Positions 4,711 to 47,966 of a DNA stretch of 64,000 bases are shown here, in pieces (within the stretch, counting starts at the first letter, position 1; the number at the start of each line of letters is the position of its first letter). The translations under genes were made by a program, and so were the position numbers. The DNA lies in NCBI GenBank assembly GCA_012026655.1, contig JAAILG010000054.1, forward strand, positions 1 to 64,000. The letters run 5' to 3'. Source of the stretch: Hydrolagus affinis. Its lineage: Eukaryota. The notes beneath the pieces were generated by a model that was not told the origin of the DNA, searched no databases, and saw only the letters and a list, made by a program, of their open reading frames with translations.

Positions 4711-5490
4711 GGAGTCCTGTAGCTCAGTGCTTAGAGCGCTCGCCTCGCAAGCAAGAGACTTAGGTTTGATTCCTGGCAGGGTGAAATATTGGGCAAGTTT
4801 CCTTGCTCCACATGCCTCTGTTTACCTAGCAGTAGGGTCCGGTGATATATTGATATATCAGTTATATCCGATATAATTTTCATATCGATATGCCGATATC
4901 GGAATTTAAAATACATTGATAAATCAAAAAATTCAATATGTAAAAAAAAATGGATATATCGCAAATATCAGTATATTGTGTCCGGCGATATATCGGTATA
5001 ATGCGGACTTTTTCAACTTACCTTGTCGATATCCGAATGCGTGCGCACACCGGAATGCGTGCGCATGCGCAGAACAAAGAAAACCTGCGATATCGATATA
5101 TCGGTATATATCGATATATCAGCATATATTGATATATCGCCGATATCGATATATCGGTGTATATTGATATGGGCAAACCGATAAATCGATATCGGAAAAT
5201 TTCGATATCGACGGACCCTACCTAGAAGTAAGTACGAATCTGGTTGTTAGTCAATTGGCGGATTGCTTTTTTAAGAGCAATATAATTCCTTAAAAAAAAT
5301 AAAATTATTAATAAATTGGTCACTTTAATCTACGACTGTTTGTGGGACACCACAATTGGCTACTGCCTTTCGCCCACAATATATAGGCTGTTCACTTTAC
5401 TATTCTTGAAGTGCTTTGAGATGTCTTGAAGATAGATGTCTTGAAGATTTGATAAGGCGCTATATCAAATGCAAGAATTATTATTATTAT
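4711..5490 (+). mobile_element. tRNA-derived SINE interrupted by a hAT MITE
   Basis: A-box/B-box-like head ggagtcctgtagctcagtgcttagagc ... ggtttgattcc; tail atcaaatgcaagaattattattatt. Confidence 0.85.
4833..5220. mobile_element. Non-autonomous hAT-type DNA transposon (MITE), copy 1
   Basis: Termini TAGGGTCCG ... CGGACCCTA; 8-bp TSD CCTAGCAG/CCTAGAAG; many GATATCG subterminal repeats. Confidence 0.88.
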
Positions 5491-7412: not shown

Positions 7413-7676
<264 letters not shown>

Positions 7677-15884: not shown

Positions 15885-16492
15885 TAGGGTCTGTCGATAT
15901 GGAAATTTTCCGATTTAGATATATTGATGGGCTCATATCGAGATATACCGAAATATCGATATTTTGGGGTTTTTTGTACTGCACATGCGCGCACGTCGTG
16001 AGGTGCGCGCGCATTCGGAGATGCGCTCGCATTCGGGGCCTATCTCCTTAGGAGGTAAATATCTCTCTTTCTCTATATCTCTCTCACTCTCTCCATCTCT
16101 GTGTTTTTCTGTCTGTGTCTCTGTGTCNNNNNNNNNNNNNNNNNNNNNNNNNNNNNNNNNNNNNNNNNNNNNNNNNNNNNNNNNNNNNNNNNNNNNNNNN
16201 NNNNNNNNNNNNNNNNNNNNNNNNNNNTGTCTCTCCCCCCCTCACCCCTTGCATATCTGTATATTGTATTCTAGGACTAAGAATACAATATGGCGGCTTT
16301 GCACCTCGGTCTGTGCATTGTGTATAGAGATGAGCATTCTGGGTCTTGTAGTTCAATGTGCGCGCATTCCGATTTTTTCCCTCGATATATCGATTTTTCG
16401 ATATATCGATATTTTTAGAATGTCTATATCGGCATATCGATGTGAAAATTATATCGGGTATAACCGATATATCGATATATCGCCGGACCCTA
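15885..16492. mobile_element. hAT-type MITE copy 2 (inverted relative to copy 1), containing a CT/GT microsatellite and a gap
   Basis: Termini TAGGGTCTG ... CGGACCCTA; the left end matches the reverse complement of the copy 1 right end; flanks share only tgttg. Confidence 0.82.
16128..16227. other. Assembly gap (100 N)
   Basis: Run of N flanked by simple CT/GT repeats. Confidence 0.99.
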
Positions 16493-17609
16493 GTATGTTG
16501 ATATTAATGTTAAATTTGAACTGAATGCAAATTTTATAGGTATAAAATGTAGTGAAAGATTTTACTGAAAAAACTGCCCTTTGATACTTTATTAAAATTT
16601 TTAATATTGCATATGCTCATAGAAGCCAAGTCACTCTTTTGAGTATTTTTGAACAGGCTGTTCTCCAAGAAGTTTGCTTCAAAGACTCCTTTTTGGAGCT
16701 TCGATAATGAATGTAAGCAGAAGTTGGGTTACATTTTTACGGCCATGATAAATCTTAAAAATACCTTTCAATGATTTCCAGAAGTGAAAATCATGTACTT
16801 AATGTGGCATAGCAGAACTTCAACACAAATGTAATTCCTAGTGCTGTCAGTGCTTATTTAAATAGGGCTATTGCTTCACTTTGGTAACTTGTTACTTAAA
16901 CCAATTAACAATTTAGGGAAAGAAAGCTCTTCCCAAACTGAATTTGTCACATGAAATGAAACGTGTTTTTTTTCTACTAAAGTCATTTATTTTTGCCAAG
17001 TTTCTTTTTAACGATTCCCTTTAATCCTTGGGATAGAAATGATCGAGATTAAACCAGTTGCCTTACAGCGAACACTAATGGGAATTTGAACTTGTTTGTT
17101 CAAACAACGTGACTTTATTGCTAATTACATTCTGCTTCTTAAGTTTCTTATGCCCTTTCTCCTTAGCAAGGCAAAATTGTTCCGTGGGTTGACTTTTTAT
17201 AAAAATTATAACCAAATCTGAGAGAATTGGTGTTAATGGAAGAAATTATTCTTGAAACATATTGCATCTTTGGGATAATCTAATTCTATGATCTTGTGCA
17301 AGGGCGCAGCCCAGAGGGAGTGAAATGCACTGGAATTGTTAATGAAATCTGATCACGTGATGTGACGATCTGAAAGGAGGTGTAGAGAATTGTAATTGGC
17401 TGGATAAATGGTAGATTTGTGCTGTTCACTGTTTTGAACAGGCAGAGCAAGTTGACTTAAGACTGTTTTAAAAATGTCTTGGTAGTGAGATTGAGATAGA
17501 CACCAGTAACACCAAATTTGGCAATCATGGGCTTTGCTGCCTTTCTGTGGTCCTTTTTGTCAAAATGCACCCAAGGGCTCTGTGACAGCTAAATATCACT
17601 TATTCTCAA

Positions 17610-17708
17610 ATGGATTCTGAGACGAGAGAAAGATGCCCGATGTTTGTTATTATCAATTCCCATTGCTGCTGCTGCTCCCATCAAAACGACCATGTTCATG
17701 TCAATGAG
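17610..17708 (+). CDS. WNK1: KS-WNK1 alternative first exon 4a (coding part)
   Basis: ATG at 17610, 33 codons MDSETRERCPMFVIINSHCCCCSHQNDHVHVNE, then GAG|gtgagt. The phase-0 donor matches the phase-0 acceptor of exon 5. FVIINSHCCCC matches the mammalian exon 4a peptide as recalled (MDIKKKDFCSVFVIINSHCCCCPQKDCINE). Confidence 0.92.
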
Positions 17709-19252
17709 GTGAGTAATGGATCTGTTACTGACATTTTTTAAGTAATTGAACTTAATTTGACAAATTTGGTTTTGCCTTTTAATTTGTGGTAAATGTTTGC
17801 CATTATTCAGTTGTCACAGATTTCTGTGTCTTGTAAATTGGTGTATTTCAAAAAGCATTTTTATACAGGTTTGGGTTGAAAATGTTATTCAAGCAGGCTG
17901 GTCCAGTGTGATATATGAATTTATTGTAAAAATCCTACTATTTAAAGAAGAAAAAATAATATACCAAATTCAGGAAAGTTAAGGCATTTGTCAGCTGAAT
18001 TTAAAATTTTGAATTCAGCATTGAGCATGGAGATTTTGTAAATGTCTATAAATATTTTTGGAAAAAGTAGCAATGGAATTAAAAATATCAAACTAAACAG
18101 ATATTCGTCAACATTGATCATAATGTACATTGGACGAGATTGGGAAGGGAGGAGGAGATTGAAAGATAAGAAAGTTGTTTGAACCTGCATCTCTGGCTTC
18201 CCTTTCTCGGACTAATGTTCCAAGTTTTTGAGAGTGGAAATGTTAATATTTGGCTCTAATTTTCGGGCAAGAGAAGAGGTGAATTGCACAAGAAATTAAG
18301 TAAATGTGCAAAAATTGTACCAGTATTTATGGAATATCTAATATGGTGAGATTTTTGAGAAAATATATTTATTTGACTCATAGTTTATTGTCTTGGTACA
18401 TTGAATCAATATTTTCTCATGACAAAGAACTTTAGATTTCTTTTCACTATAGACTTTTCCTGTACTATTGGTGTCTATGGACAGAAAACTTGAATGCTCA
18501 ACCGATACAATGAATGAAACCTGAGCAAATCAATTTATATAACCTGCAAGAATGTGGCGAAGCAATCTACTTAACAGTTGTCAAATGAGTTTTAAACAGT
18601 TGAATGCAATTTTGATTCTCTGAAATAAGTATCATATTTTCATCAACTATTGGTATAGAAGTAAAATTTATAAGCGGCAAAAATATTAGGGTTTTTTATT
18701 AGGCTTTTTAAAAAAAAAAAGAAATACTGTCATGTTTTTGAACCATTGCATTTGAATGTATTAATTTCGAGTGGTTCAGCATTTCAAATAGTAGGAAGCC
18801 TTTGGAAGGCCTCAGATGTCAGCCTGGTTGGCAGTAGTCTCGCCTCTTAAGTCGGAAAGTTGTGGATTCAAGCCTACAAAGGGACTTCACCCTTAACTCA
18901 TTGGCTAACACTCCAATTGAGTTCTGGGATTCACTGCATTATGAGTGATGTCTAGATGTCATCACAATGCTACCATTGCTACCCTTGCTTAGTGCTTTGT
19001 ATTTTAAGATGTGAGATCTCTTAACAGAGTGAATGTTGACCAAGTGGTGGTAGGGGAGTGGGGGGGTGAGGGTGAGATCCAGAGTGATTCAGCAGAGTTA
19101 GTGAGATTAAATTCCTTTCTTGAATATCTGCATACTTTGCATCACAAACCATGGGTTGGATACTTAATTTCAAATGAGTAGTATTTATGGACCTCAAAGA
19201 CGGGGGTTGCAAGATAATTGCTTAACAATCTTGTGGCCAGTGTCCACATGGA

Positions 19253-19557
19253 GACCTGAAGCACAGTAGTTAGAACACTCACCTTACAAGTGAGACACCT
19301 GGGTTCGATTCCAGGCAGGGCGAATCCTTAGGCAAGTTTCCTTATTCCACATGCCTAATAATATCCCTTGAAAAAAACAATAATAAATTGGTCATTTCAA
19401 TCCACGACTGTTGTGGGACACTGCTGTGTGCAATTGATTGCCATAAATTACCCACAAATATACAGTCAATTCACTTAACAGCATATTTCTGTGAAGTGTT
19501 TTGAGATGTCTAGAAGACGTGAAAAGCTCTATATCAAATGCAAGGATTATTATTATT
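19253..19557 (+). mobile_element. tRNA-derived SINE, near full length
   Basis: B-box ggttcgattcc, core tccacgactgttgtgggacactgctg, tail caaatgcaaggattattattatt. Confidence 0.87.
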
Positions 19558-20315: not shown

Positions 20316-20404
20316 GGTGTCAAGCCAGCTAGCTTTGACAAAGTCGCAATCCCTGAAGTTAAAGAAATAATCGAAGGCTGTATCCGGCAGAATAAAGATG
20401 AACG
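20316..20404 (+). CDS. WNK1: WNK1 exon 5
   Basis: ttttcag|GGTGTCAAG ... GAACG|gtaaat; 89 nt; [30 protein letters not shown]. Confidence 0.96.
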
Positions 20405-21046: not shown

Positions 21047-21266
21047 GTATGCCATCAAGGACCTTTTGAGCCATGCCTTCTTCCAGGAAGAGACTGGTGT
21101 ACGTGTAGAATTGGCAGAAGAAGATGATGGTGAAAAACTTGCAATTAAACTATGGTTGCGAATAGAAGACATTAAGAAGCTTAAAGGAAAATACAAGGAT
21201 AATGAAGCCATAGAATTCTTGTTTGATCTGGAAAGAGATGTTCCGGAGGATGTAGCACAGGAAATG
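21047..21266 (+). CDS. WNK1: WNK1 exon 6 (kinase end, CCT-like autoinhibitory domain)
   Basis: tttaag|GTATGCC ... GAAATG|gtaagg; 220 nt; [73 protein letters not shown]. Confidence 0.96.
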
Positions 21267-21518: not shown

Positions 21519-21879
21519 GTGGAATCTGGATTTGTAAGTGAAGGAGATCACAAAACCATGGCCAAAGCTATCAAAGATCGGGTGTCTTTGATCAAACGGA
21601 AACGGGAGCAACGTCAGTTGGCAAGGGAAAAGCAAGAGAAGAAGAAACTGGAGGAGCAGCGAGAACAGCAGAAGAAATCGGATCAACTACAGCAGCAAAA
21701 ATCACAGCAAGGAGCCAGTATATCTCAACCTGGAGTGGGAGTTGCTCATTCGTCTCAGTTGCCTACCACAGCAGTCCCTTCTGCACTCCCTGGAACCCTT
21801 CCAACCCAAGTTGAACCAGAAGAGCCTGAAGCAGATCAGCACCGACTGCAGTACCATCCAGCTGGCAACTCGGCTGCAT
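21519..21879 (+). CDS. WNK1: WNK1 exon 7 (coiled coil and acidic KLHL3-binding motif)
   Basis: ttaaag|GTGGAATCT ... GCTGCAT|gtaggt; 361 nt; VESGFVSEGDHKTMAKAIKDRV ... EPEEPEADQHRLQY. Confidence 0.93.
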
Positions 21880-24332: not shown

Positions 24333-24584
24333 CCTCGACGAGGTCGTAGCATGTCCGTTTCTGTTCCCCACCTTTCTGCCATTCCTGATTTACCCTGCAT
24401 TCCCAGAACACCCTCTTCTCCGCCACCAGTTTTCTCTCCACCTCTCTCCCCCCATGTTCGGACTGTTCCTGAAGAAACATTTGCAGAAAAACTTTCAAAA
24501 GCATTGGAAAGCGTCCTGCCAATGCACTCAACTCTTCCACGCAAACAGCGCCGCTCCAGCCTCCCGTGTATTAGTTTCAACCCT
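24333..24584 (+). CDS. WNK1: WNK1 alternative exon 8b
   Basis: Long U tract cttcag|CCTCGACGA ... AACCCT|gtatgt; 252 nt, phase 0-0; PRRGRSMSV ... PEETFAEKLSKALESVLPMHS ... RRSSLP, motifs typical of WNK1 8b. Confidence 0.9.
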
Positions 24585-25317
24585 GTATGTTACACGTGAC
24601 TCATGAGGATAAGTTGTCATTAAATAAAACTATCATGGGCACCAGGTTTTACTGTCATGAAATCAGAGTTGTTTTTATCAGCTTCTAATTTGGCTCAGTT
24701 AGATAATTTTTTTTAAAAAAATTTGCGAGGGAGACAGTTTATGTGATAAGAAATGTAGAATGATTTGAATTAATTTGACAATTAACATGAAACTATAAAT
24801 AGATAACTTAAAATATACTAACTCAACAAGTTTATTACATGTGACAATGTTAACTGGTACAGAGGGCTTTTGTGTTTGCATTAAAGTTTAGAGAATGAAA
24901 TGTAGAGCAAAATAGTTTTCAAGGTTGCATATTAAACCAGCTACTTATGTTTAGCTTGTTTTTGAAAGTATTAGTTGCTCTGATAATTTGTTGGAGAAGC
25001 TCTGCATTTACAAGGAATAGTGAAATTGCTTTACTGTCAAGGAGAAAGAGTGTCAGATTTGCAACCTGGCAGGAGCTATGACGCTAATATTGGCAGTTTG
25101 TATTTCATAAACATGGAAAAACCATCAGCAGGGATGTTGATGAAATTAACAAAATTAGACAAAATTATTTTAATTTGTCTCAACTAGAATTTATAATAAT
25201 CCTTGATATAATGCTTTTCATGTTTTTAGACTTCTCAAAGCTCTTCACAGAATACTATAACAACAACAAATTTACATGTTTAGAATGCCTTTCACGTCGG
25301 GAGGACATCCTAATATA

Positions 25318-26084: not shown

Positions 26085-27515
26085 TCCCCATCACTGGTGC
26101 ATCCTTGTGGGGGAGCTCCATCACAACCAGACGCAGTATCTTACTCAACTATTCCTGAGAGACAATATTCTTTCTCTCCACCACCAAGTGTTCCGCTGAA
26201 AATTGTGAATACTCAACGCCGCAAAAGTACTTCTGTCCTGGAAGCCCACACTTGGCATTTTCAGCCCATGTTCAGGACCGTAGGCCAGAATGTTGTTTCC
26301 GCTGGTGATTTTTCTAATCGGACTGTTGAAGGACTGGCAGCTCAAGGTTTGAATACCCATAGGTCTACCAGCGAACCAGTGCACATACAAGCTCAGTTGC
26401 CAGAACGTGTCCACACATCCACTGAAGGCAGTTCTAGATTTGGTCAATCTGAAGAACTTCAACTCTTCGTACCTCATCCAATGATGTATCCAATCAGTGT
26501 TCATTTGCAGCAAAATCTGCAGGACTCGTATGAGGTTGCCAAGTATAGCAACCTTCCGACTTGTGGATTAGCATTGCACCAAATTCCTACAGAGTTAAAC
26601 CTTCAGCAACAAATTTATTCTCAGCCCATGAGTTGTGAGATTCCCCTGAATAGTCAGACCTTTCTTCCCTGCCAGATGCAAAATATGATGGGTCAGCTGG
26701 TGCCTCAATTAATACAGGTGGCTTCTCATACATTGCCCGCTCAAGTTTCAAGCCTACCTGCTCAGCTCCAACTGTCGCAGGATTCAGGTCAACCTATGAA
26801 GTTAGAGATGCAGACAGCTTTGATACCAACTAAAGTATACTTACCATTGCAGGAAGATAGAGATGCTCAAAGTGATCTTGCATCTGCAGGCTTTTTCACA
26901 AATAGTGGTGTGACTCTGGATACTGTTCCACAAATTTCTCGTTCTGCACCAGCTATACTTGCACAGATAAATGAAGGCAGAACTGGGTCTATATTTGATT
27001 TCCAAATCCCTGCAGCGCAAGTGGAAGGCAGTAGCATTCAGCCCCCTATTCCAACATCCCAGAGAATTTACAGGAGTCGGAGGGGTTCTATGGATTTAAA
27101 CTTGGATGATGCACAAGGGACTGGAATGTATTGTAGACTTCAGCCGGTAACTGAAGAACAGGTGGTTTACTTCAGCTCTGATCATTTGATGCCACCAGAT
27201 AGTGTGCTACTGAATAGACAATCATTCTCACAAGAGGTTTCTCACAATCTCAGTCCACAATGTTCCAGTGACTCTGGTCAGTCCACATCCTCAGAGACAA
27301 GAGGGTTGCAGTCTCCTCCCCCTGTGGGAACATCCACCTCCAGTGTATCAGTTCTTAGTGAGCAACAACAGGTTTTCCAGGAAAGTGGCACATACAGTGA
27401 AATGATGTGGGGTATGCCAGTTTCACTAGGTGCACCACCAGCCATTTTTTTTCAGACCACCACCGAACCTTTTCTGACAGCTTCACGAACAGGAACCGCT
27501 GGCTTGTATCTCCAG
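26085..27515 (+). CDS. WNK1: WNK1 HSN2 exon (nervous-system cassette); 3' end uncertain
   Basis: atgcag|TCCCCATCA; long open frame with HPCGG, SFSPPP, QRRKSTSVLEA, YRSRRGSMDL, RLQPVTEE, LQSPPP. The donor CAG|gtcatg at 27515 was chosen by similarity to the mammalian exon end. In-frame alternatives are at 27605 and 27620. Confidence 0.85.
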
Positions 27516-28175
27516 GTCATGGAAGGATCCTGGTCTCAACCGTCTTCAACCCAGCAGAACATGCTACTAGATCACAGTTCTGCAGACTTACAGAGCCTAC
27601 ATTTGGTATTTGAATTTCAGGTGTTCACACTTTATGGTGAAAACTATCTGAAAGATGTAGTGTTTATAATGGCAACCCTTTCTTCTTGAAAATTGCATTT
27701 CCAATCTGCAAAATAACAGTTTGTGTTTCATTTTGCTTCACTCCGTCACGTGCATAAATAAGTTATTTGGGTAAATGTCCTAAGCTTTATAGCTTAGAGA
27801 CCATTGAATTTATTCTTTTTTTCAGTTCAACAAAATTGTAATTTTAGTAAGACTCTTAAATTGAATCAAAAAACTACATCTGGTACATCTCAATCAAGCG
27901 GAATCTATCTGTACTATGAAATTAGTGTTTTTTTTACAAAAAGCCTTCACTTCTTAAACTATGCTTAGTTACTGCAATTCTGCATGTATTGCGGTAATTT
28001 GAGTCAGTTATTGATGGCTGATTTGTGAACATACACAGTGATTGGCTCAAATATTAACATCAGTTTGAATTGAAGTCTTGTATAATTCAATATTGTGCTC
28101 CACATCAATGGATATGTGATGTCTGTCCTATTAATTTGATTATTAATGTATTTTTAACTTTTAACTTCCCAACAG

Positions 28176-37372: not shown

Positions 37373-37513
37373 GTGCACAGGCAGGTTCAGCAATGCAGGT
37401 GGTACATTCTGCTGGAAGACGGTTTATTGTTAGTCCCGTGCCTGAGAGTCGATTACAAGAACCATCGTTTGTCAGTCCCAGTGCATTGACACAAAAGGAA
37501 GTTTCAACAACAG
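37373..37513 (+). CDS. WNK1: WNK1 exon 18 (RFIV SPAK/OSR1-binding motif)
   Basis: tttcag|GTGCACAG ... ACAACAG|gtaaga; 141 nt; QVVHSAGRRFIVSPVPESRL. Confidence 0.94.
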
Positions 37514-47763: not shown

Positions 47764-47966
47764 ACATTTAAAGGAAATTCAGGAGTTACAATCACGTCAG
47801 AAACAAGAGATTGAGGACCTCTATATAAAATTAGGCAAGGCACCCCCTGCAGTGATTATTCCACCTGCAGCTCCCCTTTCTGGACGTCGCAGACGACCCA
47901 CCAAAGGAAAAGGCAGCAAATCGAGTCGGAGCAGTTCCCAGGGTCCAAAGAGCCCCCTACTTCCAG
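47764..47966 (+). CDS. WNK1: WNK1 exon 25 (C-terminal coiled coil, HQ motif)
   Basis: tttcag|ACATTTAAAG ... CTTCCAG|gtatgt; 203 nt; HLKEIQELQSRQKQEIEDLYIKLGKAPPAVIIPPAAPLSGRRRRPTKGK. Confidence 0.96.

Follow-up and report, generated by a model that had tools for sequence, protein, structure and literature searches.

A chimaera WNK1 gene with KS-WNK1 exon 4a and the likely origin of this exon before the split of cartilaginous and bony fishes

KS-WNK1, the kinase-less isoform of WNK1 that carries exon 4a, has a range cited as coelacanth to human (PMC8174809). PMC6014176 (Boyd-Shiwarski 2018) dates the emergence of exon 4a to coelacanths and suggests that it had a part in the water-to-land transition, and the accessible text of a 2025 article in JCI (PMC12321387) again places its emergence in that transition; the accessible text of PMC11381001 and PMC13686953 adds nothing on the age of the exon. 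In mammals, the cysteine-rich, hydrophobic N-terminus is described as driving WNK-body condensates, loss of an outer cysteine (the one lacking here) as leaving localisation unchanged, and the tetrapod isoform as restricted to the distal tubule (PMC6014176). As far as the accessible sections go, the response of NCC to potassium is amplified by WNK bodies (PMC12321387), activation of NCC and turnover through KLHL3 depend on residues 11 and 13, with V11A abolishing NCC activation in the mammalian protein (PMC8174809), and PMC13686953 is the source for the role of RFx[VI] motifs. KS-WNK1 exon 4a is thus known from coelacanth to human, and what is new here is its presence in cartilaginous fishes. 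The initial annotation of this DNA had given the coelacanth and move-to-land dating, in agreement with PMC6014176 and PMC12321387 as far as accessible, and had allowed that a chondrichthyan exon 4a might already be documented; we found no such report in searches of the open-access literature.

The window, i.e., the whole 64-kb stretch of Hydrolagus affinis DNA analyzed here, contains most of the WNK1 gene on the + strand, with the following features.

7414..7571, + strand: WNK1 exon 4, kinase domain, missing from the short form (100% to P0122; donor GTAAGT)
17144..17166, + strand: acceptor-like pyrimidine tract and AG (18 of 20 pyrimidines; top of the six intron 4 sites with at least 16)
17194..17609, + strand: transcribed leader of exon 4a, at least 416 nt (unbroken cover by the spliced X1 contig)
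17610..17708, + strand: coding part of exon 4a, 33 codons (tetrapod profile 42.6 bits; 26/33 with skate P0159; 19/24 with turtle P0171)
17634..17675, + strand: cysteine-rich hydrophobic motif, with C9, MFVII at 11 to 15, NSH, and C19 to C22 (motif as defined in the accessible text of PMC6014176 and PMC8174809)
17709..17714, + strand: splice donor GTGAGT, phase 0 (used in run X1, GT..AG joint to 20316)
20316..20404, + strand: WNK1 exon 5, joined to 4a (X1 joint, phase check)
21047..21266, + strand: WNK1 exon 6, PF12202 domain (X1 joint, reading frame, domain match)
21519..21879, + strand: WNK1 exon 7, with the acidic KLHL3-binding motif at 21813-21842 (motif as given in the accessible text of PMC8174809)
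37420..47815, + strand: downstream WNK1 scaffold elements, with RFx[VI] at 37420, 45714, 46368, and 46404 (motif scan) and a C-terminal segment at 47774

The segment at 47774 is one that we take to be the C-terminal coiled coil. Intron 4 is 12,744 nt long (from the end of exon 4 at 7571 to the start of exon 5 at 20316), in line with the 12.7 kb first estimated, and the boundary sites of exons 4, 4a, and 5 are all in phase 0. The layout described in the initial annotation was reproduced throughout 17610-17714: the ATG at 17610 opens 33 codons that run to 17708 and are followed by the GTGAGT donor in the phase of exon 5, and no stop interrupts the joined reading frame of 4a and exons 5 to 7. Such geometry is common in intron 4, where 6 of the 27 GTRAG sites have an in-frame ATG and one other frame is also 33 codons long, and the case therefore rests on homology.

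A profile built from tetrapod exon 4a peptides only, searched against the 2,865 six-frame segments of the window, recovered the peptide at 42.6 bits (E 6.1e-12), the next segment reaching 9.8 bits; among 30 shuffled windows, the top score was 16.1 bits. The genome contains exon 4a once (E 3.4e-18, with the runner-up at 0.34; 6/6 candidates scored), and its host gene groups with WNK1 proteins and not with the paralogues. The tetrapod isoforms used for comparison were the RefSeq entries P0195 (human, identical to the peptide that the initial annotation had given), P0171 (turtle), P0090 (grouse), and P0197 (frog). The first 24 residues are identical to turtle P0171 at 19 positions and to human at 14. 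As in the tetrapod isoforms, the exon lies in WNK1 intron 4 in phase 0 and is joined to exon 5 (the joint being that of relatives), and it shares with them the MD start, C9, five hydrophobic residues at 11 to 15, NSH, and the four cysteines 19 to 22, with the acidic and RFx[VI] motifs retained downstream. It differs from them by a length of 33 residues (27 to 33 in tetrapods, mostly 29 to 30), by Met at position 11, and by a His-rich tail which, as first noted, is three residues longer than in the human peptide and which proved common to skate. Five of the six human cysteines are kept, C9 and the four inner ones among them, and C27 is missing as in turtles. The acidic rather than basic N-terminus pointed out earlier holds as a difference of sign over the first eight residues (-1 in the window, -2 in skate, 0 in turtle, +1 in human), but its size is small.

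A close counterpart is the skate protein P0159, which carries neither name nor annotation in the collection and whose 4a, of 33 residues with the same tail and joined to exon 5, is identical to that of the window at 26/33 positions, with 131 of the first 140 residues of 4a plus exons 5 to 7 being equal. Unlike the window peptide, it has Ser at 9 (no C9), Val at 11, and Phe at 13. Further protein searches returned KS-type RefSeq isoforms of birds, turtles, a snake, an alligator, mammals, and frogs, and exon 4a was present in 112 of the best 120 of 7,803 passing rows (111 tetrapods and one mammal-type). No coelacanth, lungfish, or ray-finned row appeared among these best 120, a blank that says little about ray-finned fishes, since the exon has been reported in coelacanth and individual cluster members do not show in these rows. 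The 33-residue query against 1.84 billion representatives (0 matches) and region 1-40 of P0159 as the query (no candidate) missed the known tetrapod isoforms too and are hence uninformative, and the ESM Atlas search gave no useful lead (best score 0.88). In the one paralogue whose intron 4 was readable whole (WNK2-like; G000:C1687:40500-40533, L035, sense strand), an 11-residue cysteine-rich match of 12.8 bits is probably due to chance, as it lacks an ATG, follows closely on a stop, and was equaled by 1/60 shuffles. A bacterial promoter scan was disregarded as meaningless for vertebrate DNA.

That the match is due to chance or convergence, or that tetrapod DNA has contaminated the assembly, has in our opinion a negligible probability, although one could invoke the shortness and cysteine richness of the exon and the lack of matches of the 33-residue query (a search that missed the known tetrapod isoforms too): the intron, strand, and phase are those of tetrapods, the score of 42.6 bits compares with at most 16.1 in shuffles, the peptide is unlike every tetrapod version compared and matches skate, and the exon is contiguous with holocephalan flanks in run X4. 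This explanation is already largely refuted by the X1/X4, skate, and profile data. Altogether, score, intron, and phase confirm the homology first proposed, and by these sequence criteria the exon is the orthologue of KS-WNK1 exon 4a in WNK1 of a chimaera.

The clade of the host gene was established from WNK1 itself. The long variable exon is 87% identical to the cluster containing Callorhinchus milii WNK1, 57 to 66% to 20-odd sharks and rays, and far less to birds, and identity to the C. milii cluster amounts to 92% over 1,760 columns. In a midpoint-rooted tree of 27 rows, from which one frog row was left out and which had no ray-finned fish, coelacanth, or lamprey among its taxa, the closest branch to the window is formed by two Callorhinchus-cluster rows, placed as its sister with an SH-aLRT support of 100, and all three are nested in a 17-row chondrichthyan clade. 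The genome is therefore that of a holocephalan other than C. milii, which bears out the earlier guess of a cartilaginous fish and speaks against the sarcopterygian that had been considered. The gene is the same as that of L-WNK1 of cartilaginous fishes (P0122/P0127 and elasmobranch RefSeq models; 92% to the Callorhinchus cluster), in which exon 4 runs into exon 5 in 84 of 85 proteins, 4a being found only in P0159.

Four sequence runs (X1 to X4) were compared with the WNK1 stretch. X1 was classed as RNA by guess, and three exact splice joints support an RNA origin; its source, organism A, is ~90% alike to the window in the leader and introns and, from this likeness, is probably another holocephalan. 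Its record 1 (1,443 nt) covers 17194-17706 and continues through GT..AG joints into exons 5, 6, and 7, the 4a-to-5 joint falling exactly at 17708/20316. X4 is unbroken through the introns at ~98% identity and lacks this joint, so that the joined form is not a genomic copy in X4. X2 and X3, from the organism and study of X1, contain spliced exons 5 to 7 with shallow unspliced cover, and the 4a joint occurs 0 times among the joints listed for them, where contigs cannot prove absence. The joint is thus present in one of the three probable RNA runs of organism A, and its lack in X2 and X3 is a weak hint of tissue restriction. A 39-word index query for RNA runs covering 17330-17730 listed none, which is not evidence either way. 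All 13 gap letters of the X1 piece are in the leader and none in the coding part of 4a. The window and organism A differ by at most 10 substitutions in 97 coding letters, a rate similar to that of the flanks, so that these substitutions cannot show constraint.

In P0159 (1,882 aa, from a Logan contig of 8,516 nt), the 33-residue 4a is fused to exon 5; this protein shares 97.8% identity with Leucoraja WNK1, next to which it falls in the tree, and is therefore that of a skate. Compared with the window, it is 79% identical in 4a versus 57 to 60% in the two longest disordered exons. It is the only one of 85 chondrichthyan-type proteins to reach exon 5 with 4a, the other 84 using exon 4, in a count where members of clusters of longer isoforms were not enumerated and where an annotated shark isoform may exist. 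Exon 4a is spliced into mRNA in two other cartilaginous fishes, organism A and the skate, and in these relatives the transcript replaces the sequence of exons 1 to 4 by 4a at the exon 5 junction. The initial annotation had made function depend on a 17708-to-20316 junction in at least one tissue; this joint is carried by the X1 contig of a close relative and by skate P0159, and not by sequence from Hydrolagus affinis itself. An orthologous exon that functions in relatives and is silent or decaying in H. affinis would fit with this origin of the splicing evidence from relatives' RNA and with the V11M change, but the open frame, the consensus donor, and the intact C9 and four inner cysteines make it very improbable.

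Two further exons of the gene are open in the window, the neural HSN2 exon at 26085-27560 (56% to Mustelus model P0280, ~32% to tetrapods) and a small exon before it at ~24333-24585 (72% to bird models); chimaera WNK1 thus has both tissue-specific modules. Elsewhere in the assembly, an amino-acid-permease match lies in an intronless 740-residue frame on a small contig (G000:C73079:1276-2124), either an intronless gene or foreign DNA.

The 5' end of the 4a transcript calls for closer consideration. The leader contains nine short upstream ATG frames, all closed before 17610, versus 9.3 expected from composition; seven of the nine are apparently kept in organism A (by eye), as expected at ~11% divergence, and they could limit translation of the 4a form. 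Moreover, 68 letters of the X1 contig are unplaced beyond 17194, and together with the strong acceptor-like site at 17166 this means that 4a may not be the first exon. Exon 4a could then be internal (~17167-17708), spliced from exon 4 or another upstream exon, and would serve mainly, as an exon bearing a stop, to lower full-length WNK1, yielding little KS protein. The best acceptor-like tract of intron 4, the unplaced contig end, the nine upstream ATGs, and the internal position of 4a in some mammalian gene models point that way; in some cat and dog models (P0230, P0214, and similar), 4a is internal, read in frame and flanked by exons 4 and 5. Nevertheless, peptide conservation (26/33 with skate, 19/24 with turtle) and the lack of coding indels suggest that the product is translated, the contig end may fail to align because organism A has ~18 inserted letters upstream of 17194, and an upstream non-coding exon would leave the protein unchanged, which leaves this alternative quite improbable. 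Some of the promoter region may be concealed by a 100-N assembly gap (16128-16227) 1.4 kb upstream of the start codon of 4a; the gap is embedded in a repeat that has short palindromic units of CGATAT type and occurs again near 4830-5200. In the interval from 4a to exon 5, a very abundant SINE-like repeat (19250-19557) is present in many copies across the window and is heavily covered by the four runs.

We consider it likely that the chimaera exon is that of a KS-WNK1 which, as spliced from 4a to exon 5 in relatives, would give a kinase-less scaffold probably acting in the distal tubule, and that the exon predates the cartilaginous/bony split. The observed basis of this reading is sequence homology together with position, phase, and clade, as well as the 4a-5-6-7 splice form in X1 and skate; for function, the guide is the mammalian isoform. 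On the mammalian model, a promoter in intron 4 would drive the 4a transcript, and translation would start at 17610 because an in-frame stop lies nine codons upstream. The cysteine-rich, hydrophobic N-terminus would nucleate WNK-body-like condensates, and the RFx[VI] motifs, the coiled coil, and the acidic motif would recruit SPAK/OSR1 and active WNKs and allow KLHL3 turnover, thereby tuning the phosphorylation of NCC (or NKCC2). The window retains the acidic motif for KLHL3 (21813) as well as RFx[VI] in four places.

An NCC gene is present in the genome on G000:C12133 (L027, L028; 81 bits to SLC12A3, 49 to SLC12A2), and PMC9396271 describes ncc mRNA in bull shark, houndshark, and red stingray, where it is located in the late distal tubule; a distal-tubule scaffold is therefore favored. 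The same ancient exon and product could instead operate in the gill, rectal gland, or another epithelium, or be tuned to NKCC1/NKCC2, with the kidney/NCC specificity being a later, lobe-finned acquisition. The accessible data of PMC9396271 give ncc in seawater stingray kidney at 14 to 32 TPM versus 298 to 497 for nkcc2, i.e., ~10- to 25-fold lower; NKCC-type genes are present in the genome, and the His-rich tail is chondrichthyan-specific, all of which are compatible with such a role. We regard it as unlikely nonetheless, since direct evidence for another tissue is lacking, the conserved part is the motif needed for renal function in mammals, and the tetrapod isoform is restricted to the distal tubule (PMC6014176, accessible text). 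Three Na-coupled SLC12 genes were seen: NCC on C12133, an NKCC1-like one on C4616, and, split over C9666, C29917, and C37863, a further NKCC-like gene, which is NKCC2 by elimination. WNK4, the partner in mammals, was not identified among at least three WNK exon 4 matches in the fragmented assembly; this counts against the distal-tubule scaffold, as do Met at 11, the position where V11A abolishes NCC activation in the mammalian protein, and the missing C27 (with C9 missing too in skate). A third WNK exon 4, of WNK3 or WNK4, lies on a tiny contig (G000:C166298:325-483).

The simplest reading of finding the exon at the same place in chimaera, skate, and tetrapods is that it arose once, no later than in the last common ancestor of living jawed vertebrates, to which the initial annotation had dated KS-WNK1 if the genome was chondrichthyan. 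On this reading, exon 4a likely arose before the cartilaginous/bony fish split and likely precedes the move to land to which papers have tied it. Set against the published coelacanth-to-human range, the exon described here comes from a marine cartilaginous fish. Spliced 4a in both cartilaginous-fish branches removes the water-to-land argument and is at odds with the dating repeated in 2025; the impact is on a narrow field, and a side claim is affected rather than the core mechanism. The 4a isoform is missing from the chondrichthyan annotations examined. Natural variants (M11, S9, F13, missing C27, and the His tail) provide a test of which residues are indispensable, and the first role of the kinase-less scaffold in a marine kidney becomes a testable question. 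On balance, we lean toward a KS-WNK1/WNK-body module that would be ancestral to the jawed-vertebrate distal nephron, having arisen in fishes and being dominant in one tissue of living chimaeras. If so, this module would not be an adaptation to land, and its task in cartilaginous fishes would be the tuning of NCC in a kidney that retains urea in seawater.
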